The notes: generated from the sequence alone by a model not told the origin. DNA of 32,000 nucleotides from Saccharothrix sp. ST-888 (GCF_000955975.1 NZ_JYJF01000039.1:5272-37271); one strand, 5' to 3'; shown: positions 1 to 14,523, counted from the first letter of the stretch. A program made the numbers and translations.

Positions 1-740
1 CCGAGGACGGCGGCGGCGAAGGCGGTGATACCGGGGTTGAAGCCCATGGTGAAGGAGACCTGGGTGTTGAGGCCGAACAGGAATCCGGCGACGCCGCCCA
101 GCAGGCCGCCGATCACGAAGGTCCGCGAGATCACCCGGTCGGTGTCCACGCCCATCAGGCTCGCCGTCTCGGGGTCCTGGGCCAGCGCCCGGATGCCCGC
201 GCCCAGCCTGGTCCGGTTCACCAGCAGGTCGAGCCCGACCATCATGAGCAGCGCGCAGACCAGCAGCAGGAGTTGGGTGATCGTCACACGTGCGCCGAAG
301 ACCGTGAGGACGACGTTGTTGTCGTACAGGTGCGGCATCGGCAGCGGGTCGCGCCCGAAGAGCTTGCCCGCCAGGTTGTAGAGGAAGAAGGAGGCGCCGA
401 TCGCGCTGATCAGGAAGACCAGCTTCGGAGCGCCGCGCCGCCGCAGCGGCCGGTAGGCGACCTTCTCCAGGCCGTACGCGGTGGCGCCGCCGCAGAGCGC
501 GGACACCACGAGCCCGACCAGCACCAGCAGGACGGAAATCGGCGCGGAGGGGTGCGCGGGGGTGAGCGAGGTCAGGACGATCAGGCTGCCGAAGCCGCCC
601 AGCATGAACACCTCGCTGTGGGCGAAGTTGATCAGCTGCAGCACGCCGTAGACCAGGGTGTAGCCGATCGCGATCACGGCGTACAGGGCGCCCAGGGCGA
701 CCCCGGGGACCAGGTAGTCCCAGAACTCGTGGGGGGACAT
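1..740 (-). CDS. livH: Branched-chain amino acid ABC transporter permease (LivH family), 3' end runs off the window
   Basis: This gene is not in the ORF track because it is truncated. The reverse complement from 740 reads ATG TCC CCC CAC GAG..., giving MSPHEFWDYLVPGVALGALYAVIAIGYTLVYGVLQLINFAHSEVFMLGGFGSLIV...RLGAGIRALAQDPETASLMGVDTDRVISRTFVIGGLLGG. That is the typical LivH N-terminus (GYT-VYG---INFAHGE--M-G) and mid-protein motif. It lies 19 nt downstream of the binding-protein gene on the same strand. Confidence 0.85.
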   Translation of the reverse strand, partial: MSPHEFWDYLVPGVALGALYAVIAIGYTLVYGVLQLINFAHSEVFMLGGFGSLIVLTSLTPAHPSAPISVLLVLVGLVVSALCGGATAYGLEKVAYRPLRRRGAPKLVFLISAIGASFFLYNLAGKLFGRDPLPMPHLYDNNVVLTVFGARVTITQLLLLVCALLMMVGLDLLVNRTRLGAGIRALAQDPETASLMGVDTDRVISRTFVIGGLLGGVAGFLFGLNTQVSFTMGFNPGITAFAAAVL

Positions 741-759
741 CGTGTCACTCTCCCCCGGC

Positions 760-1932
760 TCAGCTCGCGGCCAGCGTCAGGATGTTGCCCTGGTAGGCGA
801 TCCTGCCGCTCTCGACCCGGTACAGGAACGCGGTCCGGTCCGGGAACTCGCCCTTGTCGTCGAAGCGGAAGCGCTTGGTCAGGCCCTTGTAGTCGGCGTG
901 CCTGACCTTGTCGAGCAGGGCCTCCCTGGTGGCGTCGGTGCCCAGCGTCCGCAGCTGCTCGATCACCAGGTTGGTGACGTCGAAGGCCTCCGCCGAGTAG
1001 GTACCCGGGTCCACCTTGAACTCGGCCCGGTAGTCCTCGGTGAACTTCTTGATCCCCGGCTCCACGGTGGCGTCCACGCACGGGCAGGTCAGCAGCCAGC
1101 CCTCGGACGCGTCGCCGGCCAGGTCGATGAACTTCCGGTCGTTGGTGCCGTCGCTGGCGATCTTCGGCTTGTCGAAGCCCGCCTCCTTGAGCTTCTTGGC
1201 GAACGGCGCGGCGTCGGCGTAGAAACCGGCGTAGATCAGGCCGTCGGCACCGGAGTTCCTGGCGGCGGTGGCCACCGCGGTGTAGTCCGGGGTCTTCTGC
1301 GGGACGCTCTCGTGCACCACCTGCACTCCGGCCTTCTTCAGGTCCGCCTCGGCGACACCCGCCAGACCGACGCCGTACTCGGTCTTGTCGTCGACCAGGA
1401 AGACCTTCCTCGCCTTGACCTTCCGCGCGAGGTAGGCCGCCATCCCGCCGCCCTGGGCGTCGTCGTTGGGGATGCCGCGCAGGAAGGAGGTGAAGCCCAG
1501 GGTGGTCAGTGCGGGGCTGCTGGCCGAAGGGGTCAGCGCCACCAGGCCGGCCTGCGAGTAGAGCTCGCCGGCCGCCTTGGTCGGGGCGGAGAAGGCCGGG
1601 CCGATGGTCGCGATCACCTTGTCGTCGTCGATGATCTTCTGTGCGGCAGCGGGCGACTGGTCCGCACTGCCGGCATCGTCACCGGCCGCGTACGAGAGCG
1701 TGAACGGCAGGTCCCCACGTGCGTTGGCCTGCTTGATCGCGAGTTTGACGCCGTTCTCCATGTGGACGCCGAGCGCCGAGCTCTCCCCGGTCAGCGGCCC
1801 CTGGTAGGCGATCCGGTAGACCTTCTTGCCGCCGTCCGAGCCCGCGTCGTCGTCGCTCTTCGAACAGGCGCTCAGCGCCAGCGCGCCGACGATCAGCGGC
1901 GCGGCGGTCCGCAGAAGTCTTCTGTGCAGCAC
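760..1932 (-). CDS. ABC transporter substrate-binding lipoprotein, branched-chain amino acid (LivK/type-I PBP) family
   Basis: 390-aa ORF with a GTG start preceded by GGGGGAAG. It has a signal peptide plus lipobox (LALSAC). IAYQGPLTGESSALG and the overall pattern match Leu/Ile/Val-binding proteins. It sits directly upstream of the LivH-like permease. Confidence 0.9.
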   Translation of the reverse strand: MLHRRLLRTAAPLIVGALALSACSKSDDDAGSDGGKKVYRIAYQGPLTGESSALGVHMENGVKLAIKQANARGDLPFTLSYAAGDDAGSADQSPAAAQKIIDDDKVIATIGPAFSAPTKAAGELYSQAGLVALTPSASSPALTTLGFTSFLRGIPNDDAQGGGMAAYLARKVKARKVFLVDDKTEYGVGLAGVAEADLKKAGVQVVHESVPQKTPDYTAVATAARNSGADGLIYAGFYADAAPFAKKLKEAGFDKPKIASDGTNDRKFIDLAGDASEGWLLTCPCVDATVEPGIKKFTEDYRAEFKVDPGTYSAEAFDVTNLVIEQLRTLGTDATREALLDKVRHADYKGLTKRFRFDDKGEFPDRTAFLYRVESGRIAYQGNILTLAAS

Positions 1933-2216
1933 AACTTCCCCCTGGTTGAACGGTTCTGGCGGTACTACGGCGCAGCGGTCCGATCTCGCGCGGTCCCGCG
2001 CCGCTCGGTCCCACGGTCACGCGGTGGGCTCCGGCGGGCCGACTCCGGTGAGCCGGACGCGTGCCGAGTGCGCCGGAGGACCGGACGGCAGCGGTCTCTG
2101 CGCCAACTGCAGCCTTCTGCAGCGGCCGTGACTCTAGCCAGAGTCGAAGAGCGGACGGCAGAACCGAGTTGGCGCTATGTCACCTCGGTGTCCGGACGTC
2201 CGGGGGTTCCCGCAGG

Positions 2217-5200
2217 CTACGCAGCGGCCTCCCGGTCCTCCTCCGAACTCCCGTCGGCCGAACCGCCGTCCTTCGCCCCGGCGGCACTCGCTACCGCCAC
2301 CGCCGGCCGCGGCTGTTCGGCTCCGCCCAGCCGCCCTGCTGTGGAGTCCGGCCGGGGCTCCCGCTGGGATCGGGCCACCCACCACCCCGCCAGTACGACG
2401 AGCAGGCCGACCCCGATCCTGATCAGCGCACTCTCCGCGTCCTTGGGCGAGCGGTGCACCCACTCCCAGACCACGTAGCCCATCCCGGCGGCGACCGGTA
2501 CGGCGAGGGCCAGGAGGCGCCGTCCGACGGTGCGGGCTCCCGGCGTCCACAGGGCCGCCGTGGACGCCCCGGCGAGCAGCAGCAGGACCCCTGCCAGCGT
2601 GAACGCCATCGGCAGTGCGGGCACCAGGACCGCACAGGCGAGGAGCACCCCGCCCGCGGCGAGGGCGAGTTCCACGGCACGGGTGCCGAACCGGCTCCGG
2701 CGGGTGAGGAAGACGACCATCCCCCACACCATCAGGGTGTAGCCCCGGAAGGCGGCGAGGATGATGCCGACCGGTCTGAACCGCGGCAGACCGGGGCGGC
2801 CCGCGCGAGGACGCAGGAGCTTCTGCGAGGTCGCGGTGTTCGCGGCGGCCGCCGCCGCGTGGGCGACCGTGCGGGCGAAGGTGTCGCTGCCCGCGTCGTC
2901 CGGAATCCGCTCACCGCCGATCCGCTCGGCCTCCCACCACAGCTGCCAGAGGTCCTCCGTCCTGAGCGTGCCCCCGGCGGCGTTCCGCTTGGCGTCGTAG
3001 AGCTCCAGCCAGATCCTGCCGTCGCGGGTGCGGTCGCTGTCGCCCTCGCCGCGGATCGAATCCGCCAGCGCGTCGAGGTCCTCCCGCAGGATGCCGGTCT
3101 GGGCCGACCGGCAGACCGCCCGGACGCACGCGTGCAGGCCGGCCAGTCCGTTCGCGTCACCGGCCGTCTCGTTCACGTCGCCGTCCGGTCCTGGCAGGCT
3201 GCCCGCCTGGTCGGCTCCGCTCGGCGCCGGTGCGCCGGTCGGCCCCGGTGCGTCCGGTGCATCCGGTGGGACGACGGTGACGATGCTCTCGATGAAGCGT
3301 CTGCACTCCGCCGCGTCCTCGGCCTCCCAACGCTCCGCCAGCCAGCCGCGGTCGCGGTCGCCCTTCGGACCGGTGGCGAGCGCGCAGGCCCGGATGAGCC
3401 CGAGCAGCTCGTCCACCCGCCTCCGCCGGAGCTCCGCAATCCGCTCGGCGGCCCGGTCGGCGGTCCGGTCGGCGGTCCGGTCCGTGGTCAGATCGGCGGC
3501 ACGGTCGGCCGGGCTCGGCCCGTCGTCCGCCGTAACCGTCCCGCACTGCCGGAGCCGGTCGGGCGAGAGCAGCATCCGGACGATGTGAGCCGAACCGTCC
3601 ATCCGCCCGTGCAGCCAGTCGTTGACCCGCCACGACGGACGGTAGAACGCACCGAAGTGGTGCAGCTGCTTCCCGGTCAGCAGTTGCGGTGTCATCGAGG
3701 AGAACTGGACCAGCTCCACCTCCTGCTCGACGTCCTGGCTCGCGCCGGAGAAGGCGAGCTGCACGACGTCGAGCCGGAGCATCCGCTGCAACAGCTGCGC
3801 CTCCCCAGCCGCGCCCGGTCCCTCCACCGGCCCGTCGTCCGCCGACCCCTCCACCGGTCCGAACAGGTAGTCGTGGAGGGCTTCGAGCCACTGGCTCTCC
3901 ACCCGTTCGGCTTCGACCAGCTGCGAGGTCCTGACCACGGCACCGATGGCCTGACGGCAGGTCCGCACCTGCTCGGCCACCGCCCCGGCCAGCTCGTACT
4001 GCCGCTGCCTGGGGTCGGCTCCCTCGTTCTCGGAGCGCGCGCTGTCCACCCACCCGTCGACGACCCGGCCGAGCCACCTCTGGAGCATGTCCCGGTTCGT
4101 CACCTTGCCGAACCGGTCCGACTCGCGCATCGGCATCCTGGAGCACTCGTCCACCGCACCGTCCACCGCCCTCGGGTACTCCCGCCCGGGCGCGCCCGCC
4201 CAGTACAGGTCCATCAGGCGCCGGTTCCGGTGGATGTCCTCCAGCGTGGCGCCGAGGCCTCGGCGGGCCTCGACGATCTCCCGACGCTGCGGGGAGCCCA
4301 TCGGCGACAGCTGGAGGGCCCGCCGCAGGACGTCGACGGCCATGTCCGCCAGCCGCTCGACGGTCGTCATCCCCCAGTCCCAGTCCCCGCCCGTCCGGGT
4401 CAGGGCGGTGGCCAACGGGTCGGCGGGGACGAACGATCCGTCCTGGCCCCGCATTTGCCGGATCAGCCCCCGCAGCACCTCGTCCAGCTCGCTCGGGCTC
4501 CAGCGGTGCTCCCCCACCGGCTGGCCCGCGGCGACGAGTCCGCCGATGGTCCGGGCGGCGTAGTCGATGCGGACGTCGACATACCCACTCCACGCCCGCT
4601 CGGACAGGTCCTCGGCGCCGCCCGTCATCGCGGCCGCGAGCCGGTCCCTGGCCCGCCGCCGGAACTGCACCGCCTCGTTGCGGGTGCGGATCTCGGTGAG
4701 CTCGCGCGACACCGAGTCGGTCGACCGCAGCCGGGTGAGCACACCGAGCAGGGCGTCCCGGGCGTGCGGGAGGTCCTCGGCGGTCGGAACCTGGGCGGGC
4801 AACGCCGTCGTCTCGGCCGGGTCGGGTACGACGTAGGCGAGCACCCGCCGCACCTGCACTCCGCCGGGCTGGCGGTACACCGCCTCCAGCGCCGGGCGGA
4901 TGGGCTTGTTGAGCAGCACCCCGCCGTCGAGGACGTACTGCGACTGACGGAAGTTGGCGCCACCCGCGGTGGACGGCCACGGGCCCTCGCCGGCGGCGGC
5001 GGGGGAGGCCGTCACCGCGACCCAGTGCGGTTCGAAGGCGCCCGGGAACGAGGAGGTGCACCGGGAGGCGACCGCCAGCTTCTCCACGACCTCGTCGGCG
5101 GTCAGGTCCCCGAGGGTGTCCGTGCCGTCGGCGGGCGCGGCGAACCTGAAGGTCGCGTCGTGGTCCACCTCGGTGATCCCGGTGCCCATGTCGTCGGTGA

Positions 5201-5753
5201 ACGAGGTCGTCCGGCCCTCCCACAGGGTGCCGGTGAGGATGAGCTCGACCGGGTGCGCCGCCACGTCCCGGGCCGCTTCGCCGCCGTCCCCGAGCGGCGG
5301 GGAGTCGAGCACCGTCCTGAGCGCGGAGCGGAGCTTCGGCAGGAAGTACTCGTCCCCCATCAGGAGCGAGGGCGGGTTCTTCCGGAGCGGGCTGCGCAGC
5401 AGCTTCTCCAGGCTGCCGTCCCGGCACCACAGGTCCCGCAGGCCGGCGAGCTCCCGGGGTCGCGCGAGACCGAGCGCGAGAAACGCGCCGTTGATCCCGC
5501 CCGCCGAGGTGCCGGCGATGACGTCCACGCGGGCCTCGGCCTGCAGCAGGTCGAGCAGCGGGAGGTAGGCCGCCCTTGTCCGGCGGCGCACCGTCGCCAG
5601 GCGGTGCAGCTCCAGCGTGACGCCGCTCATCCACACGGCCAGGCTCACACCGCCGTTCAGCACGACGGCGAGGCGGATTTCCTGACGGTCGAAGTCGGAT
5701 TCGGGCGCCGCGCCGCCCACCGGATCTGCGTACTCGTCCGCTGCGTTCACCAC
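2217..5753 (-). CDS. Large membrane-anchored patatin-like phospholipase (patatin domain + long helical DUF3376-type region + C-terminal TM bundle)
   Basis: 1178 aa. GTG start at 5753 with GGAG 7 nt upstream. Oxyanion motif LNGGVSLAVW, nucleophile elbow AGTSAGG (Ser83, codon 5505-5507) and catalytic Asp motif VLDGGVLLNKP. The C-terminal ~250 aa hold 4-5 hydrophobic helices (GIILAAFRGYTLMVWGMVVFL, LALAAGGVLLACAVLVPALPMAFTLAGVLLLLAG, LLALAVPVAAGMGYVVW, IGVGLLVVLAGWWV), followed by an acidic tail. Confidence 0.85.
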   Translation of the reverse strand: MVNAADEYADPVGGAAPESDFDRQEIRLAVVLNGGVSLAVWMSGVTLELHRLATVRRRTRAAYLPLLDLLQAEARVDVIAGTSAGGINGAFLALGLARPRELAGLRDLWCRDGSLEKLLRSPLRKNPPSLLMGDEYFLPKLRSALRTVLDSPPLGDGGEAARDVAAHPVELILTGTLWEGRTTSFTDDMGTGITEVDHDATFRFAAPADGTDTLGDLTADEVVEKLAVASRCTSSFPGAFEPHWVAVTASPAAAGEGPWPSTAGGANFRQSQYVLDGGVLLNKPIRPALEAVYRQPGGVQVRRVLAYVVPDPAETTALPAQVPTAEDLPHARDALLGVLTRLRSTDSVSRELTEIRTRNEAVQFRRRARDRLAAAMTGGAEDLSERAWSGYVDVRIDYAARTIGGLVAAGQPVGEHRWSPSELDEVLRGLIRQMRGQDGSFVPADPLATALTRTGGDWDWGMTTVERLADMAVDVLRRALQLSPMGSPQRREIVEARRGLGATLEDIHRNRRLMDLYWAGAPGREYPRAVDGAVDECSRMPMRESDRFGKVTNRDMLQRWLGRVVDGWVDSARSENEGADPRQRQYELAGAVAEQVRTCRQAIGAVVRTSQLVEAERVESQWLEALHDYLFGPVEGSADDGPVEGPGAAGEAQLLQRMLRLDVVQLAFSGASQDVEQEVELVQFSSMTPQLLTGKQLHHFGAFYRPSWRVNDWLHGRMDGSAHIVRMLLSPDRLRQCGTVTADDGPSPADRAADLTTDRTADRTADRAAERIAELRRRRVDELLGLIRACALATGPKGDRDRGWLAERWEAEDAAECRRFIESIVTVVPPDAPDAPGPTGAPAPSGADQAGSLPGPDGDVNETAGDANGLAGLHACVRAVCRSAQTGILREDLDALADSIRGEGDSDRTRDGRIWLELYDAKRNAAGGTLRTEDLWQLWWEAERIGGERIPDDAGSDTFARTVAHAAAAAANTATSQKLLRPRAGRPGLPRFRPVGIILAAFRGYTLMVWGMVVFLTRRSRFGTRAVELALAAGGVLLACAVLVPALPMAFTLAGVLLLLAGASTAALWTPGARTVGRRLLALAVPVAAGMGYVVWEWVHRSPKDAESALIRIGVGLLVVLAGWWVARSQREPRPDSTAGRLGGAEQPRPAVAVASAAGAKDGGSADGSSEEDREAAA
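3451..3510 (-). repeat. Degenerate 12-bp tandem repeat x5 inside the patatin gene, encoding (T/A)DR(T/A) tetrapeptide repeats
   Basis: Plus-strand units are gcccggtcggcg / gtccggtcggcg / gtccggtccgtg / gtcagatcggcg / gcacggtcggcc. On the coding strand they give ADRAADLTTDRTADRTADRAAE. Confidence 0.7.
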
Positions 5754-6014
5754 AAGGTCTCCACCCGGCTACGTGCGCCTCGCGCATCGGATCTGCCGCA
5801 AGAAGTGTGATCCGCAACCGACGGCAAGCGCAAAATGTCAACAAGAGATCGTTGGCGAAGTAACAGAAAGCCGGACCACCTGTCCGAGTCACGCTTCCGG
5901 CTCTTTCCGGTGGCATCCCGGCCCCGCCGATGATGACGTTGACAGGGCGCCGGTCCGCCGACGTTCCGGCGGAGGCGTCCCTTCCTCCGGCTCGCGGGAT
6001 TTCCTCACCACCCC

Positions 6015-6068
6015 GCCATGGGCTCCGAACCCGCCATGGACTCCGAACCCGCCCTGGGCTCCGAACCC
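6015..6068. repeat. 18-bp tandem repeat x3 in the divergent intergenic region between the patatin gene and the oxidoreductase operon
   Basis: gccatgggctccgaaccc (6015-6032), gccatggactccgaaccc (6033-6050), gccctgggctccgaaccc (6051-6068), with 1-2 mismatches between units. It lies 83 nt upstream of the ATG at 6151. Confidence 0.85.
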
Positions 6069-6150
6069 GCCGGGAGCGCGGCCCGGAGAGCCACCGGGCG
6101 CGCGGCCCAGATCACCTTCCGACATTCGTCCGACCGGGAACGTGGTGGAC

Positions 6151-6519
6151 ATGCACGAGATCGCCCGATACAGCCTTGCCGGTATCCGCCTCGTCAACGG
6201 AGCCGTGGCGCTGCTGGCCCCGAACACCCTGGCGCAACGACTCGGCATCGCCACCGGCCGTGACAGCGGCACGAGTTACACGCTTCCGCTCTTCGGGGTG
6301 CGCACCGTGCTGCTGGGCGCAGAGCTCCTGCTCGTCAAGGACGGCGCGGCACTGAACCGCTCGCTGCGCCTGGGGACGCTCATTCACGCGAGCGACGTGA
6401 TCTCGGCGATCCGGTCGGGGAAGAACGGTGACCTGCCGCCCCGGGCGGCCGTGATCGCCACGGCCATCTCGTCGGTCAACGTCGCGCTGACCTTCCTCGC
6501 CCGGGAGCCGTCGCGGTGA
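6151..6519 (+). CDS. Small (122 aa) hydrophobic membrane protein of unknown function, first gene of the GMC/alpha-dioxygenase operon
   Basis: I start it at ATG 6151 (MHEIARYSLAGIRLVNGAVALLAPNTLAQRLG...LFGVRTVLLGAELLLV...VIATAISSVNVALTFLA). The upstream part of track ORF 5773..6519 has mixed third-position GC and contains the tandem repeat. The stop overlaps the next start (GTGA at 6516-6519). From memory it resembles DUF4267-type small membrane proteins; this is unverified. Confidence 0.6.
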   Translation: MHEIARYSLAGIRLVNGAVALLAPNTLAQRLGIATGRDSGTSYTLPLFGVRTVLLGAELLLVKDGAALNRSLRLGTLIHASDVISAIRSGKNGDLPPRAAVIATAISSVNVALTFLAREPSR

Positions 6520-8510
6520 ACGCGGCGCCACGGCCCCACGAACCGTCCGCCTCCGCCGCGCCCGACTCACCCGACGCGGAGGAGGAGTTCGACTACGTCG
6601 TCGTCGGATCGGGGGCGGGCGGCGGGCCGTTGGCGGCGAACCTGGCCGAGGCCGGGTACCGGGTACTGCTGTTCGAGGCCGGCGGCGAGGACGAGCGACT
6701 CGACTACACCGTCCCGGCCTTCCACACCCACGCGACCGAGAACCCGGAGCTGCGCTGGGACTTCTACGTCCGGCACTGGGACGACGAGGACCGGCAGCGG
6801 CGCGACGACAAGTACGTCAGCGGCCACCACGGGGTCTGGTACCCCCGGGCCGGCACCCTCGGCGGGTGCACCGCGCACAACGCGATGATCACCGTCTGCC
6901 CGCATCCGGCGGACTGGGACCGCATCGCCACCCTGACCGGCGACAAGTCCTGGGCCAGCAGGCGGATGGCACGCTGGTTCCAGCGGGTGGAGCGCTGCAC
7001 CTACGTCCACCGGCCGCGGCTCCTGCCGCGGAGCCGCCTGCTCGCCGCCGTCCTGGAGCACCTGCCGCTGGTCTCCGCCAGGTTCGTCAACCGCAGTGGC
7101 CACGGCTTCGACGGCTGGCTGACCACCTCGCTCCCGGATCCTCGGCTGGTCCTGCGCGACCACCGGCTGCTCAAGGTCGTCGCCGCCGCCGCGGAGTCCG
7201 CGCTGACCGCCACGCTGGGGCGCCCGCTCACGGCTTTCGAGGGTCTGGACAGCTACTTCGACCCCAACGACCGGCGGGTGGCGGGCGGCGCCCCCGGCGG
7301 ACTGTGGCTGGTGCCGCTGGCCACCTCCGGCGGACACCGCGTCAGTGTCCGCGACCGCATCCGGGACGTGCGGCGGCGGCATCCGGACCGGCTCACCGTA
7401 CGCACCGGCACGCTGGTCACCCGGGTGCTCCTCGACGAGTCCCTGGCCGCGGTGGGGGTCGAGTACGCGGCGGCACCGCACGCGTACCGGGCCGATCCGC
7501 GCGCCGCTGCCGATCCCCTGCCGCCGCTGCGCCGGGTCAAGGTCCGCCGCGAGGTCGTGCTGTCGGGGGGCGCCTTCAACACCCCGCAGCTGCTGATGCT
7601 CTCCGGGATCGGGCCGCGCGCGGAACTCCGGCGGCACGGCCTGCCCGTCCGGCTCGACCTGCCCGGCGTCGGCTCGAACCTGCAGGACCGCTACGAGGTC
7701 GGCGTCGTCTCGGAGCTGGACGAGGCGTTCACCCTCATCGAGGACTGCACCTTCGCGCCCCCGGCGCCGGGAACCCCACCGGACCGCTGCCTCACCGAGT
7801 GGGAGAGCGGCCGCGGGGTCTACACCTCGAACGGGGCGGTGCTCGCGGTGACGGCCAGGTCGCGGCCGCAGCTGGAGTCGCCCGACCTGTTCCTCTTCGG
7901 CCTGCCCGCCTACTTCCAGGGCTACTACCCCGGCTACTCGGACCAACTGTTCCGCAACAGGCGCTACTTCACCTGGGCGGTGCTCAAGGCCCACACCCGC
8001 AACACCGGTGGCCGGGTGGGTCTGCGCAGCGCGGACCCCCGCGACACGCCCCTGATCTCGTTCCGGTACTTCGAGGAGGGCACCGACAGCCGCGGCGAGG
8101 ACCTCGACGCGGTGGTGCACGGCATCGAGCTGGCCCGCGACCTGATGCGGCGGGCCGGAGCGGTGGTCAGGCGCGAGGCGCTGCCCGGGGAGGGCGTGCA
8201 GACCTCCGAGGAGCTGCGCGAGTTCGTCCGGGACCGGGCCTGGGGGCACCACGCCTGCGGTACCGCCCGGATCGGAGCCGCGCACGATCCGCTGGCCGTG
8301 GTCGACAGCCGCTTCCGGGTGATCGGTACGAAGGGCCTGCGGGTCGTCGACGCCTCGGTCTTCCCCCGGATTCCCGGATTCTTCATCGTCACGGCCGTCT
8401 ACATGATCGCCGAGAAGGCGAGCGCCGTGCTGCTCGGTGAGGCGGCCGGGACCGGACGCGCTGCCCGCGCGAACCGCCGCCGCCCGGCCACGGCCGCCCG
8501 TACCGGCTGA
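6516..8510 (+). CDS. GMC-family FAD-dependent oxidoreductase (choline dehydrogenase/alcohol oxidase-like)
   Basis: 664 aa. N-terminal Rossmann FAD motif DYVVVGSGAGGGPLAANLAEAGYRVLLFEAGG. GTLGGCTAHNAM motif. C-terminal GMC signature with active-site His (WGHHACGTARIG...VVDSRFRVIGTKGLRVVDASVFPRIPG). Confidence 0.9.
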   Translation: MNAAPRPHEPSASAAPDSPDAEEEFDYVVVGSGAGGGPLAANLAEAGYRVLLFEAGGEDERLDYTVPAFHTHATENPELRWDFYVRHWDDEDRQRRDDKYVSGHHGVWYPRAGTLGGCTAHNAMITVCPHPADWDRIATLTGDKSWASRRMARWFQRVERCTYVHRPRLLPRSRLLAAVLEHLPLVSARFVNRSGHGFDGWLTTSLPDPRLVLRDHRLLKVVAAAAESALTATLGRPLTAFEGLDSYFDPNDRRVAGGAPGGLWLVPLATSGGHRVSVRDRIRDVRRRHPDRLTVRTGTLVTRVLLDESLAAVGVEYAAAPHAYRADPRAAADPLPPLRRVKVRREVVLSGGAFNTPQLLMLSGIGPRAELRRHGLPVRLDLPGVGSNLQDRYEVGVVSELDEAFTLIEDCTFAPPAPGTPPDRCLTEWESGRGVYTSNGAVLAVTARSRPQLESPDLFLFGLPAYFQGYYPGYSDQLFRNRRYFTWAVLKAHTRNTGGRVGLRSADPRDTPLISFRYFEEGTDSRGEDLDAVVHGIELARDLMRRAGAVVRREALPGEGVQTSEELREFVRDRAWGHHACGTARIGAAHDPLAVVDSRFRVIGTKGLRVVDASVFPRIPGFFIVTAVYMIAEKASAVLLGEAAGTGRAARANRRRPATAARTG

Positions 8511-8594
8511 CACCTGCCCCACCGGGCGCCACCGACCTGGCCGCGCCACCGACTTGAACCGCACCACCCGCACACCCGACACGAGGAGGCCGTC

Positions 8595-10439
8595 ATGGCC
8601 GACCAGCCCACCCCCCGAAACAGCCGGCCGCCGGCCGGATCGACCTCCCAGGAGGCGCCCGCGTTCATGCGGGCGTACGAGCGGCTGGCGCTGGCCGTCG
8701 ACCACAAGGTCGGCTGGGACAGGCTGCCCACGCCGCTCGGCCTGGCGACCCTGCTGGGCCTGCGGAACCTGCTGCGCCGCAAGAACCTCTTCGACACCAC
8801 GTCCTTCCCGGCGACCGACCTGCCGCCGATCGAGCCGCGCCAGGCCCGTGACACCACCGAGCGCTCGGCCGACGGCACCTACAACGACCTCGGCAGTGCC
8901 CGGATGGGCATGGCCAACTCGCGCTTCGGCCGCAACGTCCCGCCGGACCGGACCTACCCCGAACCCGAACCGGAGATCCTCTCGCCGAGCCCCCGCGAGG
9001 TGAGCCGCGCGCTGCTGACCCGGCACGCGTTCGTCCCGGCCACGACGGTCAACTCGCTGGTCTCCGCCTGGCTGCAGTTCATGATCCGCGACTGGTTCAG
9101 CCACGGACAGGGCGTCATGACCGATCCCTGGCGGATCGAGCTGGTCGACGACGATCCCTGGCCGGATCGCCCGATGCTGGTGCCGCGGACGATCCCCGAC
9201 CCGACCAGGCAGGCGGGCGACGGCCTGCCGCCCACCTTCATCAACGAGAAGACCCACTGGTGGGACGCGTCCCAGATCTACGGCGACGGCCCGCAGGAGC
9301 AGCGGCAGCTGCGCGCCGGCGAGGGCGGCAGGCTGCGGGTGCCCGGCAACGGCGCGATGTCCTCCGGCGACCCGGAGCAGGATCCGGCGAACACCCCGGG
9401 CTTCTGGCTCGGCCTGGCCATGATGCACCGGCTGTTCATCCTGGAGCACAACGCCATCTGCGACCGGCTGCACGACGAGTACCCGCAGTGGACGGACGAA
9501 CAGCTCTTCCAGCGGGCCCGGTTGATCAACGCCGCGCTCATCGCGAAGATCCACACGGTCGAGTGGACCCCGGCGGTCATCAGCCACCCCACCACGGTCC
9601 TCGCGCTGCGGGCCAACTGGTTCGGCGTCCTCGGCGAGCGGCTGAGCCGGCTCCTGGGCCGGGTCAGCCGCAGCGAGGTGCTCAGCGGCATCGTCGGCGG
9701 TGCGACGGACCACTTCGGCGTCCCGTACGCGCTCACCGAGGAGTTCACCGCGGTCTACCGGATGCACCCGCTGATCCGGGACGAGTGGGCCTTCCGCTCC
9801 GCCGCCGACGACACGCTGCTCCAGGAGGCGAAGTTCCCGGAGCTGTCCGGGCCGCACGCCTACGAGCTGCTGGCGAAGCACTCGCTGACCGATCTCTTCT
9901 ACTCGTTCGGCACGGCCCATCCGGGGCTGGTGACACTGCACAACTACCCCGAGTTCCTCCAGAAGTTCGAGCGGCCCGACGGGAAGGTCGTCGACCTGGG
10001 CGCCGTCGACATCCTGCGGATCCGCGAACTGGGCGTGCCCAGGTACAACGAGTTCCGGCGGCTGCTCCACCTCAAGCCCGCCAAGGACTTCGAGTCGCTG
10101 ACCCCGGACCCCGCCTGGGCCCGGGAGCTGAGCCGGGTCTACGAAGGCGACATCGAGCGGGTGGACCTGATGGTCGGGATGTTCGCCGAGCGCCGGCCCA
10201 AGGGGTTCGCCTTCAGCGACACCGCCTTCCGCATCTTCATCCTGATGGCCTCGCGCCGTCTGAACAGCGACCGGTTCCTCACCAAGGACTTCAGCAGCCA
10301 GGTGTACACCCGCACCGGGCTGGACTGGATCGCGAACAACACCATGACCTCCGTGCTGCTGCGTCACTTCCCTGACCTGCGCCCGGCGATGTCCTCGGTG
10401 ACCAACGCGTTCACCCCCTGGCAGAGCACCGGGGCCTGA
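8595..10439 (+). CDS. Heme dioxygenase of the peroxidase-cyclooxygenase superfamily, plant-type fatty-acid alpha-dioxygenase (alpha-DOX) homologue
   Basis: 614 aa. ATG preceded by GAGGAGG. It is colinear with my recollection of plant alpha-DOX along the whole length: WDRLPTPLGLATLLGLRNLLRRKNL (plant WHKLPV-LGL-YL--RR-LH--YNL), RSADGTYNDL...FGRNVPP, SAWLQFMIRDWFSHG (plant ASWIQFMIHDWIDH), KTHWWDASQIYG, AKIHTVEWTPAV, GVPYALTEEFTAVYRMHPL (catalytic Tyr / proximal His YRMH; Tyr codon 9756-9758, His codon 9765-9767), VPRYNEFRR, GFAFSDTAFRIFILMASRRLNSDRF. Confidence 0.85.
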   Translation: MADQPTPRNSRPPAGSTSQEAPAFMRAYERLALAVDHKVGWDRLPTPLGLATLLGLRNLLRRKNLFDTTSFPATDLPPIEPRQARDTTERSADGTYNDLGSARMGMANSRFGRNVPPDRTYPEPEPEILSPSPREVSRALLTRHAFVPATTVNSLVSAWLQFMIRDWFSHGQGVMTDPWRIELVDDDPWPDRPMLVPRTIPDPTRQAGDGLPPTFINEKTHWWDASQIYGDGPQEQRQLRAGEGGRLRVPGNGAMSSGDPEQDPANTPGFWLGLAMMHRLFILEHNAICDRLHDEYPQWTDEQLFQRARLINAALIAKIHTVEWTPAVISHPTTVLALRANWFGVLGERLSRLLGRVSRSEVLSGIVGGATDHFGVPYALTEEFTAVYRMHPLIRDEWAFRSAADDTLLQEAKFPELSGPHAYELLAKHSLTDLFYSFGTAHPGLVTLHNYPEFLQKFERPDGKVVDLGAVDILRIRELGVPRYNEFRRLLHLKPAKDFESLTPDPAWARELSRVYEGDIERVDLMVGMFAERRPKGFAFSDTAFRIFILMASRRLNSDRFLTKDFSSQVYTRTGLDWIANNTMTSVLLRHFPDLRPAMSSVTNAFTPWQSTGA

Positions 10440-10464
10440 ACCGGGCCCCGGCCCGCGCACTCCG

Positions 10465-10499
10465 CCACCGCCCGCCCGGTGTCCCGGCCGGGCGGGTGG
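10465..10499. terminator. GC-rich hairpin between convergent genes (candidate bidirectional terminator)
   Basis: ccaccgcccgcccgg (10465-10479), loop tgtc, ccggccgggcgggtgg (10484-10499). The stem is imperfect, with a bulge. It lies between the alpha-DOX stop (10439) and the stop of the 857-aa gene (10509). There is no U-tract, as is usual in high-GC actinomycetes. Confidence 0.4.
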
Positions 10500-10508
10500 C
10501 GACGCCCG

Positions 10509-13082
10509 CTACGGCTTCATCGACCGGAGATCGGGGCCGGCCAGGAACTTCCAGATCGAGATCACCACGGCGAGCTGCGCCATCACGTACGCGATCTGCA
10601 CGGAGAGCCCGCGCAGCTGGTAGATCGAGAGCAGCAGCTCGAACCGGCTGGGCCAGAACCGCCGTTCGGCGCGGAAGGTGTCCGCGTCCATGGCGAGGCT
10701 GGTGAGGGTCAGCACCAGGAGCATCAGGCAGATGGCCAGGGCCACGGCGCCGAGCGTCTGGTCGGTGATGAGGTTGCCCATGATGTCCAGGGCGATCAGC
10801 ATGCTGTAGGCGGCCACCAGCCACAGGGCGCGTGCCGGGCCGCGGCGACCGGGCAGCAGGCGCCAGAGCGCTCCCATGACCAGACCCGCGCCGGCCCAGA
10901 CGAGCTCCCAGGACGCGAACCTCCATACCAGATCGGGTACTCCGAAGAGGTTCTGGCGGGTGAGCATCCACTGCTCCTGCGGCGCGTAGGCCGACCAGAC
11001 CAGGATGACGCTGCCGGGAACGCCCACCGCGGCCGCCAGCAGGGCGGCCCGGCGGGCGTTGTCCCACCACCTGGCGTGCGGACCCCAGCTCAGGGCGATG
11101 TCCACGACCGTGACCTGGCTGGGCAGCCACGGCCGTGCCACGGCACCCTGGGCCACCTGCCGCCAGCGGTGCAGCCGGTTCAGTTCCTTCTCCACCGCGT
11201 GCCTGCCGAGGGCGCCCTCGCCGTGCCCCTGGTCCAGGCCGCGCAGCACGGTGGTCAGCTCCCGGTAGCGGCGGGCCCGTTCGATGAGGTCCCGGTGGCC
11301 CGCCTCGGCGATCGCCTCACCCAGCGTCGGAGCGGCGGCGCAGCCCTCCAGGTGCTGGTTCAGCACCGCCCACCGCTGCCCCACCGCCAGCAGGCCGTAC
11401 AGTGCGGCGATGTCCAGCACCAGCCAGAGGCTGGCCAGCACCTGGCTGCCCGCGTACGAGCCCTCGCGCCAGGCCACCACAACGGCGAAGAACACGGCCA
11501 GCAGGAGGCGGTCCAGCTCGGCGGGGTTCGCGTAGGGCACCGGCAGCCCGGTGCCCCTGGCCCGCAGTAGGGCCACGATCGCGACACCCGTCAGGACCCA
11601 GGCGTGGGAGAAGCACCACGCCGGGACACTGGCGGCCAGCGAGGCCGCTTGCTGGCTCAGGACGAGAAGGTGCAGCGAGCCGTACGCCGGTGCGGTGCGG
11701 TCGGTCAGCCAGCTGATGCGCTCCCAGTAGCCCTCGCGGGCCCAGAGCGCCCAGCCGAGCAGCAGGACGGTGAGGGCGGCCAGTGCCGCTCCGGTCCCGC
11801 GCAGCCGCAAGGGGTTCGCCGGTTCCCGGAGCAGACCGCCGTCACTCGCGATCAGCCGGACCCAGAGCACCAGACCGGTGAGCCACAGCCACAGCATCGC
11901 CGCGGTCAGCAGCACCAGAGCGGCGATGCCGGAGGCGGGCGGGGGCTGCTGGGGAACGAGCGTCGGGGGGAGCCCGAACAGGCCGGGCAGTACGGCCACC
12001 AGCGTCCCGGCGACCGCCGTCAGCGAGGCCGCGAGCAGCACCGACGCCCTCGGGCGGGCGGTGACCGTGAGGGCCCAGCCGGTCAGGACGCCGATCAGGA
12101 CCTGCCAGCGCCGCTCGTCGCCCCACGGACCCGGTTCGCCCACCGCCTTGGCCGCGTCCGGAATCAACAGGTAGAGCAGCAGGATCATCACGCCGACGAC
12201 GGCGTTGAGCAGGCCCCAGCGGAGCAGGGCTCCGCTGCTGCTCCGCTCCACCGGAGTGGCCACGGCGCCGGCCGGCTGGCGGCGGGCCCGGACGGCGGCC
12301 ACCACGATCACCGCCGAGGTGCCCGCCCACCAGGCGGCCAGCCCGGCCGCGTTGACGACGCGCCACCCCCTGCTGGTGTTCGCCGTCGCCAGGGCTCGCT
12401 GCCACGGGGGCACCAGCTGCACCGTCACGGCGGTGCTCGGGCCCCCGGGCTGCCCGAGCCCCGACCACACCAGGTTCTCGCTGTCGACGGCCGTGGGGGT
12501 GGGAGCCACCTCGAAGGCGTCCAGGCCGCCCAGGTCGATCTGGACCCGGTCCCAGCGGGCGCCCGCCAGTGCCGTCGGCGGGGTGAGGGACAGCTTCCAC
12601 CGCTCGGCGTGCATGTCGACCGCCCACGGCCCGACGGTGAAGGTGCCGCGCTGGTCGAACCAGAAGACCGTCTGGTACTGGACCTTGACCCAGGAATCCT
12701 CCGCGGTCACCTGCGGCCGGTGCGGGCGCCACTCGTCCGTCCGGAGGTCCTGGAACCGGGGACTCCCCTGCTCCTCCCGCAGCAGGCAGCGCATCGCGAG
12801 CCGGTAGGCATCGGAACTCTCGCTCAGCATCAGGTCGTTGGCGAGCGCCCAGGTGGTGGGCACCTGGACCGTCATGTCCCCCTTGCCCTCGATCACGGTC
12901 TGGGCGTGGTTGACGAGTCGCAGGACGGCCTCGGTCCGGGCCGTGACCAGTTGCTCCGCATGGCAGCCGTCGGCCGCCGCCTCCGCCCGGCCGGGCCACA
13001 GGGCCCACCAGGCCAGGCCCACCAGCAGGAGGGCGGTGCACCGCCGCCACCGGTGCACCAGCGCCCGGGCGTCCCGCCTCAT
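10509..13082 (-). CDS. 857-aa polytopic membrane protein of unknown function (N-terminal extracytoplasmic domain, ~15 TM helices, one ~100-aa soluble loop)
   Basis: Signal/anchor CTALLLVGLAWWALWPGRAEA, then ~230 aa of soluble sequence with Cys residues. After that come many hydrophobic helices, e.g. LLNAVVGVMILLLYLLI, IAALVLLTAAMLWLWLTGLVLWV, AVALAICLMLLVLTLTSLA. A charged loop (HRDLIERARRYRELTTVLRGLDQGHGEG...LNRLHRWRQ) is also present. Third-position GC is high throughout. I recognised no catalytic motif. Confidence 0.75.
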   Translation of the reverse strand: MRRDARALVHRWRRCTALLLVGLAWWALWPGRAEAAADGCHAEQLVTARTEAVLRLVNHAQTVIEGKGDMTVQVPTTWALANDLMLSESSDAYRLAMRCLLREEQGSPRFQDLRTDEWRPHRPQVTAEDSWVKVQYQTVFWFDQRGTFTVGPWAVDMHAERWKLSLTPPTALAGARWDRVQIDLGGLDAFEVAPTPTAVDSENLVWSGLGQPGGPSTAVTVQLVPPWQRALATANTSRGWRVVNAAGLAAWWAGTSAVIVVAAVRARRQPAGAVATPVERSSSGALLRWGLLNAVVGVMILLLYLLIPDAAKAVGEPGPWGDERRWQVLIGVLTGWALTVTARPRASVLLAASLTAVAGTLVAVLPGLFGLPPTLVPQQPPPASGIAALVLLTAAMLWLWLTGLVLWVRLIASDGGLLREPANPLRLRGTGAALAALTVLLLGWALWAREGYWERISWLTDRTAPAYGSLHLLVLSQQAASLAASVPAWCFSHAWVLTGVAIVALLRARGTGLPVPYANPAELDRLLLAVFFAVVVAWREGSYAGSQVLASLWLVLDIAALYGLLAVGQRWAVLNQHLEGCAAAPTLGEAIAEAGHRDLIERARRYRELTTVLRGLDQGHGEGALGRHAVEKELNRLHRWRQVAQGAVARPWLPSQVTVVDIALSWGPHARWWDNARRAALLAAAVGVPGSVILVWSAYAPQEQWMLTRQNLFGVPDLVWRFASWELVWAGAGLVMGALWRLLPGRRGPARALWLVAAYSMLIALDIMGNLITDQTLGAVALAICLMLLVLTLTSLAMDADTFRAERRFWPSRFELLLSIYQLRGLSVQIAYVMAQLAVVISIWKFLAGPDLRSMKP

Positions 13083-13140
13083 GCCACCGCCCCCGGCAGG
13101 GGTGCCCGGAGGAGCGGCGTCCTCGTTGCGCGGGAAGCCT

Positions 13141-13533
13141 TCAAGGCCGGCCGTTCGCGCTTCCCGGGCACCCGCTGACCGGACTGCACTGCAGGATCAC
13201 CTGGTAGGCGTGGCTGACGGCCGCTTCACCGCCGTCACCCCCGGCGGTCTTGACGAACCGCCACTGCGAGGGCCTGGTGTGCTCGGTCGTCGCCGCCTTC
13301 TCGACCTGGACGTGCAGTGTGCGCGCCGCGAGGTCGTGGGTCTCGACCAGGATCTCGTCGGCGGCGACGGGGAAGTGGTGGTGCAGCAGGCACAGGCCGA
13401 ACCGGTCGAGATTTCCGTGTTTCTCCAGCACCGCCACAAGATCGTCCACAAACTTGCGATCCTGCGGACCCAGCCCTTCGACCTCCTCGAACCGCGGGAG
13501 TGCCTGCCCGGAATCAGCCGTACGATTTCCCAT
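13141..13533 (-). CDS. 130-aa hypothetical protein, co-oriented 58 nt upstream of the 857-aa membrane protein gene
   Basis: I start it at ATG 13533, with GAGGAG 7 nt upstream, rather than at the track start 13620. Sequence: MGNRTADSGQALPRFEEVEGLGPQDRKFVDDLVAVLEKHGNLDRFGLCLLHHHFPVAADEILVETHDLAARTLHVQV... It has no TM segment and no motif I can name. Confidence 0.6.
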   Translation of the reverse strand: MGNRTADSGQALPRFEEVEGLGPQDRKFVDDLVAVLEKHGNLDRFGLCLLHHHFPVAADEILVETHDLAARTLHVQVEKAATTEHTRPSQWRFVKTAGGDGGEAAVSHAYQVILQCSPVSGCPGSANGRP

Positions 13534-13932
13534 CGATCCGCTCCTCGATATCACAGCGCTGCATGGCACTCGGAACGCTAAATGGGTCGGTATGCACCTG
13601 CAAGGACAGACATGGGACAACCGGCCCGTCCCCCGGAAAGATCAGCCGTTCACCCGGATCCACGCACTCGGCGCCGGCCGGCCGGCCGTCGCTGCGACCC
13701 GCCCGCCGCCGTGCCGGTGAGCAGAACCGCCCGAGGGAGCGGCCCGGGGGAACGGCTCGACACGGGCCGGCGGGCGGCGGCGAGCTGACGGGCCGACCAG
13801 CCTCTGCCGGGGCCGCGGCACCGACCGTTACGGTGCGGAGGAGGGCCGTTCGACCCGACCCCCCGGACTCGGTCTCCGGATGGACGGGTATCGTCCAACG
13901 GGCAGCTTTCCGATCCGATCGGTGGGGGACGC

Positions 13933-14523
13933 ATGGGCGTGGTACTGCCAGACGAGCTGGTGTGGATCCTGGACCTGATCGGGGTCGACTGGCCGAACGT
14001 GGACGAGGACGACTACCGGGCGATGGCGGACTCGCTGCGCTCGTTCGCCACCGACATCGACGACCACACTGCCGACACCCACCAGGCCGTGCAGCGGATG
14101 CTGGGCGAGAACGCCGGGATGGCCGTCGACGCCTTCCAGGCCCACTGGGGCAAGCTGTCCGGCACCCACCTCCACCAACTCGGCGAAGGCGCCCGGATGG
14201 TGGCGACGGTGATGGACGCCGTCGCAATGGTCGTCGAGGGCGCGAAGATCGCGGCGATCGCCCAACTCGGGATCCTGGCAGCCGAGGTGATCGCCGCCCA
14301 GGCCGCTGCGGTGGTCACCTTCGGCGCCTCCGAGGCAGCCGCGGCCGCGGCCACCCAGGTCACCCGGGTGGTCGTCAAGCAGCTGCTCAAGGAGGCCGAG
14401 CAGCAGATCATCTCGCAGCTGATGTCGATCGCCGAGGGGCCGATCATCAGCGCCCTGGAGGGCATGGCCGGGAACCTGGTTCTGAAACTCGGCGCCCCGG
14501 CCGGATCGGCGGCCACGGCATGA
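13933..14523 (+). CDS. 196-aa WXG100-like / CpnT-N-terminal-like helper protein, translationally coupled to the Rhs gene
   Basis: ATG with GGGGGA upstream and very high GC3. The N-terminus LPDELVWILDLIGVDWPNVDEDDYRAMADSLRSFA matches the (L/I)G--WP--DE---R--A--(W)R--A motif. I remember that motif from N-terminal domains of actinobacterial ESX/T7SS-associated toxins (e.g. CpnT YIGMIWPNGDSTKLRAAAVAWRSAG). A helical region with AFQAHWGKL follows, then an Ala-rich hydrophobic stretch. The stop overlaps the Rhs ATG (ATGA at 14520-14523). Confidence 0.7.
   Translation: MGVVLPDELVWILDLIGVDWPNVDEDDYRAMADSLRSFATDIDDHTADTHQAVQRMLGENAGMAVDAFQAHWGKLSGTHLHQLGEGARMVATVMDAVAMVVEGAKIAAIAQLGILAAEVIAAQAAAVVTFGASEAAAAAATQVTRVVVKQLLKEAEQQIISQLMSIAEGPIISALEGMAGNLVLKLGAPAGSAATA

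Follow-up and report, generated by a model that had tools for sequence, protein, structure and literature searches.

Which reactions are encoded where a gene for a patatin-like lipase diverges from genes for a small hydrophobic protein, a GMC-family flavoenzyme and a plant-type alpha-dioxygenase (alpha-DOX)? This arrangement occupies positions 2217-10439 of a 32,000-nucleotide stretch of DNA from Saccharothrix sp. ST-888, hereafter the window, and an earlier reading of the same DNA, the original prediction, had taken it for a bacterial oxylipin module. We examined gene structure, homology, residue conservation and neighbourhood statistics. Based on these observations, the region may encode a cytoplasmic module, associated with the membrane, for the oxidation of fatty acids at their alpha carbon, with a core operon composed of the small gene, the GMC gene and the alpha-DOX gene. 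We assign a probability of about 0.5 to this reading.

The haem protein and its predicted chemistry

The evidence that carries this reading lies primarily in the haem protein. It matches Pfam An_peroxidase (3e-104) and aligns over residues 34-610 with the rice and Arabidopsis alpha-DOX structures 4kvj and 4hhr (E 1e-109), and its matches to COX-2 (4e-17) and lactoperoxidase (9e-18) are far weaker. Its identity to rice alpha-DOX is 36% over 564 positions, and it has neither a signal peptide nor a transmembrane (TM) segment. To assess residue conservation, we aligned 198 bacterial homologues and located in this alignment the rice residues listed in PMC8720084. The catalytic Tyr388 (rice Y379) and the proximal haem residue His391 (rice H382) are invariant in this alignment, as are the carboxylate-binding residues His320 (rice H311) and Arg555 (rice R559), together with Arg554. 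Similarly, Thr325 (rice T316), which positions the alpha carbon, the stacking Phe residues and the Asp of the Ca site show no substitution. The carboxylate-binding, alpha-carbon-positioning and catalytic roles of these residues in rice alpha-DOX were reported by Kim et al. (2021, PMC8720084). Collectively, the end-to-end structure match and the invariant catalytic and carboxylate residues identify the protein as a true alpha-DOX/PIOX homologue, as originally proposed. To judge from these residues, it almost certainly binds a carboxylate beside a redox-active Tyr, as plant alpha-DOX does. The family to which it belongs comprises at least 7,992 sequence clusters at E<=1e-20, mainly from soil Actinomycetota and their neighbours, and the best named matches of the window protein are from Kitasatospora and Streptomyces.

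The distal haem His of the rice enzyme (H157) is replaced by Arg165. Among the 198 homologues, this position is occupied by Arg in 163, His in 20, Lys in 14 and Ser in one. On a neighbour-joining tree, it switches among His, Arg and Lys at least 13 times, and the distal Arg was accordingly rejected as a marker of a clade or subfamily. The distal residue is a labile basic position.

All steps of the chemistry that follow, including what the GMC protein acts on, what the small protein does and how the lipase is coupled, are inferred from sequence comparison. The haem protein would bind a free fatty acid via its carboxylate, using His320, Arg555 and Thr325, and a Tyr388 radical formed with haem and peroxide would abstract a hydrogen from C2. 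Addition of O2 would give a 2-hydroperoxy acid, which would yield the C(n-1) aldehyde and CO2 or be reduced to the 2-hydroxy acid. The GMC protein would perform a linked flavin oxidation, most likely converting the aldehyde hydrate or the 2-hydroxy product to the shortened acid and H2O2, and this H2O2 could re-prime the haem. Furthermore, the small protein, a predicted four-helix bundle, would probably tether the soluble enzymes at the membrane, while the divergently encoded patatin-like lipase would supply fatty acids cut from membrane lipids.

Operon layout and the partner proteins

Genes were called by frame analysis of third-position GC content (GC3). Since the window is approximately 72% G+C, the majority of the open reading frames (ORFs) listed for it are spurious. 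In the flagged region, GC3 frame analysis gives four genuine genes, and the features are as follows, with the basis of each in brackets:

2217..5753, minus strand: patatin-like acyl hydrolase, 1178 aa (Pfam and TIGR03607 profiles, motifs, hydropathy)
5754..6150, no strand: divergent intergenic region, 397 bp (sequence)
6151..6519, plus strand: small hydrophobic four-helix-bundle protein, 122 aa, DUF4267-like (GC3, AlphaFold2)
6516..8510, plus strand: GMC-family FAD oxidoreductase, 664 aa (GMC_oxred_N, GMC_oxred_C)
8511..8594, plus strand: intercistronic gap, 84 nt, with GAGGAGG at 8583-8589 (sequence)
8595..10439, plus strand: alpha-DOX (PIOX)-type haem protein, 614 aa (An_peroxidase, alpha-DOX structures)
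10440..10508, no strand: convergent intergenic spacer with a GC-rich hairpin (sequence, fold energy)

Every structural detail of the four-gene layout in the original prediction agrees with the sequence and with GC3. By direct sequence reading, the stop and start codons of the small gene and the GMC gene overlap in GTGA (4 nt, 6516-6519). The 84-nt gap does carry the strong ribosome-binding site that had been proposed, located five bases 5' of the haem-protein ATG, and the divergent region, previously put at about 400 bp, measures exactly 397 bp. With three genes on one strand, a 4-nt overlap, an 84-nt gap and an order kept in distant genomes, the proposed three-gene operon is borne out on sequence. 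The GC3 coding signal starts only near 6150, and the true start of the small gene is therefore the ATG at 6151. The start of the longest ORF, at 5773, was ruled out because GC3 is non-coding before about 6150. Orthologues of the small gene are likewise annotated at 122 aa. For the patatin gene, the NCBI start of an identical protein is one codon later, at 5750.

Within 5754-6150, alignment with the loci L086 and L081 shows conserved blocks shared by three Kitasatospora species; one such block is CGATGATGACGTTGA, with TTGACA at 5939-5944. In addition, the leader of the small gene carries 3.3 tandem copies of an 18-bp unit, CCCGCCATGGGCTCCGAA, at 6012-6071 (TRF score 106). A diverged copy of this repeat is found in L086, a 95%-identical locus, and the whole block is absent from the orthologous locus L081. 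A lineage-specific expansion is therefore likelier than a conserved regulatory site, and a regulatory array is unlikely for the same reason. A consensus promoter scan returned no sites, and a terminator scan returned one terminator-like site, at chance level. The GC-rich hairpin that follows the haem-gene stop may act as a terminator; its fold energy is -43.6 kcal/mol with z = -1.2 against shuffles and hence is not distinctive. A search of window positions 1-14000 against Rfam gave no RNA elements.

The small protein scores 19.2 bits against DUF4267 (PF14087), under the gathering threshold of 27.8, and one of its homologues, P0129, has a precomputed PF14087 match. With 30 homologues, AlphaFold2 produced a confident four-helix bundle (pLDDT 89.5), for which Foldseek gave no match at E<=0.001. 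The invariant polar residues are R13, R51, H79, S81, D82 and N110. Two of the four helices lie above the TM hydropathy threshold. The earlier description as a small membrane protein is thus plausible and moderately supported, though unproven.

The GMC protein matches GMC_oxred_N (5e-17, 62.9 bits) and GMC_oxred_C (5e-31, 108.4 bits), lacks a signal peptide and contains GSGAGGG. It retains the catalytic His motif HHACGT, and WGHHACGT is conserved family-wide. The protein falls far below the NCBIfam choline dehydrogenase cutoffs. Its closest solved relatives are fatty-acid photodecarboxylase (FAP; 4e-47) and choline oxidase (3e-44). Although FAP is the best PDB match, assignment as a photodecarboxylase was rejected: Cys432 of FAP corresponds to Ala, and Arg451 falls in an alignment gap. 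The identities of these two FAP residues were deduced partly from a comparison of wild-type and C432S chains. The second active-site His/Asn position is provisionally assigned to the Phe of a conserved PRIPGFF; it was placed by alignment to the AAO, choline oxidase and FAP motifs.

The patatin protein matches Pfam Patatin (6e-17; 62.8 bits against a cutoff of 27.7), DUF3376 (1e-15) and NCBIfam TIGR03607 (416 bits against a cutoff of 262). It carries a GTSAG nucleophile elbow at residue 81, a DGG at 276 and a Gly-rich NGGVS at 34, and hydropathy indicates about four hydrophobic helices at the C-terminus, in residues 995-1128. In PADLOC, the patatin gave only two marginal phospholipase-effector matches (E 4e-4, 18 bits) and the other proteins none. 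With no significant PADLOC match, an anti-phage defence system was rejected. The protein is 100% identical to the 'patatin-like protein' of Saccharothrix sp. ST-888. The close relatives of all four genes, however, are all from Kitasatospora, and the source strain is therefore probably misnamed.

Gene neighbourhoods across genomes and metagenomes

To compare neighbourhoods, we searched 80 species-representative alpha-DOX loci, a sample of the larger family, by tblastn with the window proteins over flanks of ±10 kb. The small four-helix protein is the most frequent neighbour and adjoins alpha-DOX in about 45 of the 80 loci, mostly immediately upstream. A GMC gene is present in about 19 of the 80, always in the order small-GMC-alpha-DOX with tight spacing, and these alpha-DOX-linked GMCs form a single clade. 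This order occurs in Streptomyces, Pseudonocardia, Amycolatopsis, an Acidimicrobiaceae metagenome-assembled genome (MAG) and a Ktedonobacteraceae MAG, as well as on a metagenome contig (L091), and spans Actinomycetota and Chloroflexota. No TIGR03607 patatin was found in any of the 80 loci. The neighbourhood proposed earlier is thus conserved for the small and GMC genes and is not conserved for this patatin.

The neighbours of the 80 loci were also clustered to find recurrent partners. A second patatin-like family, here termed PAT2, has many TM helices and the motifs CxSGGGIR, VSGGxY and TDGGHYENLG, and is unrelated in sequence to the TIGR03607-type patatin. It is located beside alpha-DOX in 7 of the 80 loci, whose hosts belong to several taxonomic orders. 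In four (L001, L003, L040 and L064), it lies directly downstream on the same strand; the hosts are two Streptomyces, whose alpha-DOX is 73% identical to that of the window, a Solirubrobacteraceae MAG and a Mycobacteriales MAG. In the other three (L011, L055 and L069), which include Acidobacteriota, it lies within a few kb. Short tblastn matches to PAT2 at about 11.4-11.8 kb in many genome loci were discarded as alternative-frame artefacts over the 3' end of the alpha-DOX gene.

A DyP-type peroxidase (PDB 8re3, 3e-60) is encoded near alpha-DOX in about 14 of the 80 loci, and the DyP set is immediately beside the small and alpha-DOX genes in many Actinomycetota (e.g., L011:7254-9984, L085:5144-9538, L004, L005 and L019). 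The proteins of about 390-590 aa that flank DyP gave no Pfam, NCBIfam or PDB match. Those of about 430 aa are not similar to catalase or to alpha-DOX, and their membership in 'cluster 0' is a single-linkage artefact. In 14 Streptomyces loci (e.g., L012, L013, L017, L020, L021, L026 and L029), a protein of about 677 aa with an N-terminal Trypsin_2 domain directly follows alpha-DOX at about +17 bp. Its C-terminal half contains an SHSLG motif and has no Pfam match, and no lipase assignment was made. Finally, in Streptomyces ochraceiscleroticus (L022), positions 3370-7524 encode a 954-aa fusion of a catalase-related and an alpha-DOX-type protein followed by a 347-aa mini-catalase. Both lie directly upstream of small-GMC-alpha-DOX, so that one cluster holds two alpha-DOX paralogues. 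In its alpha-DOX-type domain, the fusion still has His at the distal position, and it shares 45% identity with the window enzyme. The presence of a catalase-related fusion and a mini-catalase supports hydroperoxide chemistry.

These neighbourhoods also bear on whether the operon belongs to a biosynthetic gene cluster and tailors a specialised metabolite, for instance a lipopeptide or polyketide whose acyl chain is oxidatively decarboxylated. An actinomycete host would suit such a role, and alpha-DOX chemistry could in principle shorten an acyl chain. However, neither the flanks in the window nor the related loci contain a core polyketide synthase, nonribosomal peptide synthetase or terpene synthase, the flanks differ in every species, and the family is widespread in uncultured soil lineages with housekeeping-type neighbours. 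We therefore consider this explanation very improbable.

The GMC family was followed further in a metagenome scan seeded with the window GMC, which gave 80 loci (L091-L170). The closest, L091 (61% identity), contains small-GMC-alpha-DOX, and the other 79 (46-53% identity) contain no alpha-DOX. In 58 of the 80 loci, which are soil metagenome contigs, a secreted di-haem c protein of about 810-850 aa is encoded that falls in no assigned family (signal peptide, two CXXCH; e.g., L157:148-2574). It is immediately upstream of the GMC gene on the same strand, at a median of 72 bp among loci with a measurable distance. Some loci additionally encode RoxA-like di-haem proteins and an old-yellow-enzyme homologue. 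Moreover, patatins occur beside the GMC family in about 13 of the 80 loci (PAT2-type in 11, a short patatin in 2-4; Pfam 9e-16). The metagenomic GMCs have the same active-site motifs as the window protein and likewise lack signal peptides. A 145-aa protein encoded downstream of them was considered as a relative of the small protein and is unrelated to it. As an observation in its own right, the set of di-haem c protein, GMC, RoxA-like protein, old-yellow-enzyme homologue and patatin looks like an undescribed gene cluster. On these comparisons, the GMC family is a habitual partner of two unrelated kinds of haem protein and of patatins.

This pairing of a GMC family with identical motifs and an unrelated secreted di-haem c protein suggests a different explanation for the region. 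The GMC and haem proteins might form a flavoprotein/haem redox pair, in which the GMC protein acts on an unrelated alcohol and feeds H2O2 or electrons to the haem protein. The latter would then be a peroxidase or peroxygenase, or would use a carboxylate other than a fatty acid, and fatty-acid alpha-oxidation would not be the physiological reaction. The DyP-type peroxidases beside about 14 alpha-DOX-type genes and the replaced distal His are consistent with such a pair, and we also count in its favour the order of the small, GMC and haem genes, which is reminiscent of gamma-alpha-beta FAD-dehydrogenase complexes. Against it, the carboxylate-binding His and Arg, the alpha-carbon-positioning Thr and the catalytic Tyr are invariant in 198 homologues, and patatin lipases recur in both haem contexts. 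The catalase-related fusion in L022 points to hydroperoxide products. In addition, the di-haem c protein has a signal peptide and the GMC protein has none, which argues against a direct electron-transfer complex at those loci. Collectively, the redox pair seems unlikely.

Within the alpha-oxidation reading, the role of the GMC protein is the weakest step, and we purely infer it. Oxidation of the aldehyde hydrate or of the 2-hydroxy product would be one option, and it fits the similarity to choline oxidase. A role related to fatty acids is further supported because the closest solved relative, FAP, binds fatty acids and the next oxidises an aldehyde hydrate. Alternatively, the GMC protein might chiefly supply the H2O2 that starts the Tyr-radical cycle, in keeping with its pairing elsewhere with an unrelated haem protein located in another compartment. 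Both could hold together, since an aldehyde oxidase would regenerate both a shortened-acid substrate and an H2O2 primer.

For the lipase, the picture is more restricted. The divergent patatin gene and the small-GMC-alpha-DOX operon are kept whole in Kitasatospora genomes that are 95% and 86% identical, and the flanks of the latter are wholly different. In two more Kitasatospora species (L084 and L088), patatin and alpha-DOX remain without intact small and GMC genes, and in L084 the interval between them (9633-9955) retains 34 codons from the end of the small gene and 74 from the start of the GMC gene. L082 has alpha-DOX alone, together with 37 N-terminal codons of the patatin (L082:9664-9774). 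The remnants in L084 and L082 show that the four-gene block has decayed step by step in Kitasatospora. In all, the divergent patatin/alpha-DOX arrangement is found in five Kitasatospora genomes with four distinct flanking contexts. A reciprocal search, starting from the patatin, found no alpha-DOX near its closest relatives elsewhere, which are from Kitasatospora HPMI-4 (68% identity), from Micromonospora and from Streptomyces (48-49%). With these relatives standing alone and no such patatin in the sampled alpha-DOX loci, the pairing of this patatin with alpha-DOX does not hold as a general feature. The pairing instead represents a single ancestral juxtaposition in a Kitasatospora subclade, stable through rearrangements and also lost piecemeal.

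It is accordingly possible, although doubtful, that the functional unit is small-GMC-alpha-DOX or just small-alpha-DOX, and that the patatin is a neighbour by descent with an unrelated job in membrane-lipid turnover. Such an explanation agrees with the distribution outside the subclade and with the loss of the patatin in L082, where alpha-DOX was kept. It also agrees with the much faster evolution of the patatin, which retains 55-58% identity where alpha-DOX and GMC retain 83-86%, and the gap is only about 0.4-0.6 kb, so that random rearrangement would rarely split the pair. On the other hand, the pair survives four flank contexts and the precise loss of the small and GMC genes in L084 and L088. 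Furthermore, two other patatin lineages independently adjoin alpha-DOX or its GMC family. The lipase link of the original prediction therefore fails for the TIGR03607 patatin, but it recurs through the non-orthologous PAT2 beside alpha-DOX and through patatins beside GMC. An association of lipase, haem oxygenase and GMC thus recurs with non-orthologous parts; the TIGR03607 link is specific to Kitasatospora, and other lineages mirror it with different patatin families.

Several of these observations weigh against fatty-acid alpha-oxidation as the function of the region. A GMC gene accompanies only about a quarter of the alpha-DOX loci, and 79 of the 80 metagenomic GMC loci lack alpha-DOX. Since 58 of those 80 carry the di-haem c protein, the GMC role may be generic to haem partners. 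In the active sites, the second His/Asn position of the GMC protein is a Phe, on the provisional assignment given above, and the distal His of the haem protein is an Arg. The TIGR03607 patatin is missing from all sampled alpha-DOX loci, its relatives elsewhere have no alpha-DOX nearby, and the decay of the block within one genus indicates that its parts are dispensable.

A broader, tentative reading would make one GMC clade the common partner in a modular bacterial lipid oxidation, with interchangeable haem partners and at least three patatin-like lineages joined to it. In Actinomycetota and Chloroflexota, the partner would be the alpha-DOX-type haem-b dioxygenase with the four-helix protein, and in other soil bacteria, it would be the secreted di-haem c protein. 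We hold this combined proposal to be possible and clearly less secure than alpha-oxidation by the core operon. If true, it would point to a widespread, undescribed bacterial route of fatty-acid alpha-oxidation or of oxylipin and aldehyde formation, maybe self-priming via the H2O2 made by the GMC protein.

The remainder of the window was also annotated. A DUF6185 protein is encoded at 10509-13082 on the minus strand, convergent with the alpha-DOX gene (full-length profile match, 1067 bits). Synteny of this gene extends only to the 95%-identical genome, and none of the 80 alpha-DOX loci contains it, so that it lies outside the module. A polymorphic-toxin locus at 13317-19012 is absent from the otherwise syntenic L086. 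It contains a WXG100_2-domain gene (13933-14523) and a gene whose RHS/YD-repeat product carries DUF6531 and, at the C-terminus, DUF3990; the 106-aa ORF after it is a possible immunity gene. Because the 1792-aa ORF that starts at 13317 runs across the WXG100 gene in a different frame, its real start is probably near 14.5 kb. Finally, the apparently unconnected region 19058-31294 encodes a SpoIIE-type phosphatase, an MFS transporter, a sigma-70 factor, an anti-sigma-type HATPase, an MscS channel, a monomeric isocitrate dehydrogenase and a class A-like beta-lactamase.

Comparison with known systems

To our knowledge, the only alpha-DOXs characterised so far come from plants and a few cyanobacteria, and each was studied as an enzyme by itself. 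A literature search, in which most subscription journals were not covered, found no paper on an actinobacterial alpha-DOX enzyme, DUF3376, DUF4267 or the partner genes. This agrees with the original prediction, which took the characterised bacterial alpha-DOXs to be cyanobacterial; those characterised in PMC8720084, two in number, are so. Sequences of the alpha-DOX family have already been found in Actinobacteria, where phylogeny groups them with the cyanobacterial ones (Kim et al. 2021, PMC8720084). The partner genes conserved with this family could show which steps are still missing from a bacterial pathway of alpha-oxidation or aldehyde formation. If the proposed chemistry is true, actinomycetes would have a way of making volatile aldehydes and odd-chain or 2-hydroxy fatty acids, and functions could be assigned to the DUF4267-like protein and to the uncharacterised GMC clade. 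The enzymes would also offer new aldehyde biocatalysts that need no ATP, among them variants whose distal His is replaced by Arg or Lys.

Two comparisons concern the partner proteins. The oleate-diol synthases of Pseudomonas aeruginosa are proteins of the di-haem cytochrome c peroxidase type that oxygenate fatty acids (PMC4496055). They set a precedent for fatty-acid oxygenation by bacterial di-haem c proteins, the type of protein that adjoins the GMC gene in the metagenomic loci and is not encoded in the window; PA2077/PA2078 and the ~810-aa protein are likened by analogy only. FAP and choline oxidase share the FAD-binding and GMC C-terminal motifs with the window GMC protein and differ from it in Cys432, Arg451 and the second His/Asn.

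For the haem protein, the closest comparison is with the plant alpha-DOXs of rice (4KVJ/4KVK) and Arabidopsis (4HHR). The match is end to end and includes all catalytic and carboxylate residues except the distal His, which is His157 in rice and Arg165 here. Unlike the plant enzymes, the bacterial protein is encoded in an operon with a GMC protein and a four-helix protein. The cyanobacterial alpha-DOXs (CalDOX, LepDOX and the Crocosphaera enzyme; PMC8720084), compared by description, are bacterial members of the same family. In contrast to the window protein, they keep the distal His, and they were studied singly, with no partner genes described. The distal His is only partly conserved in the alpha-DOX family (PMC8720084).

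A further parallel is the Nostoc 10S-dioxygenase with its catalase-related hydroperoxide lyase. There too, a haem dioxygenase from the peroxidase-cyclooxygenase superfamily works in a bacterium together with a neighbouring enzyme that consumes its hydroperoxide. Catalase-related partners of haem dioxygenases process fatty-acid hydroperoxides (Brash et al. 2014, as cited in PMC13049297). The likeness is seen at L022, where the catalase-related::alpha-DOX fusion lies by small-GMC-alpha-DOX. The window, in contrast, has a GMC partner and no catalase-related gene, and oxygenation would presumably occur at C2, not at C10. Collectively, these comparisons leave existing ideas standing and extend a known enzyme family to a new genomic and taxonomic setting, in which the haem enzyme is a new member and the operon with its modular partners has, to the best of our knowledge, no earlier description.

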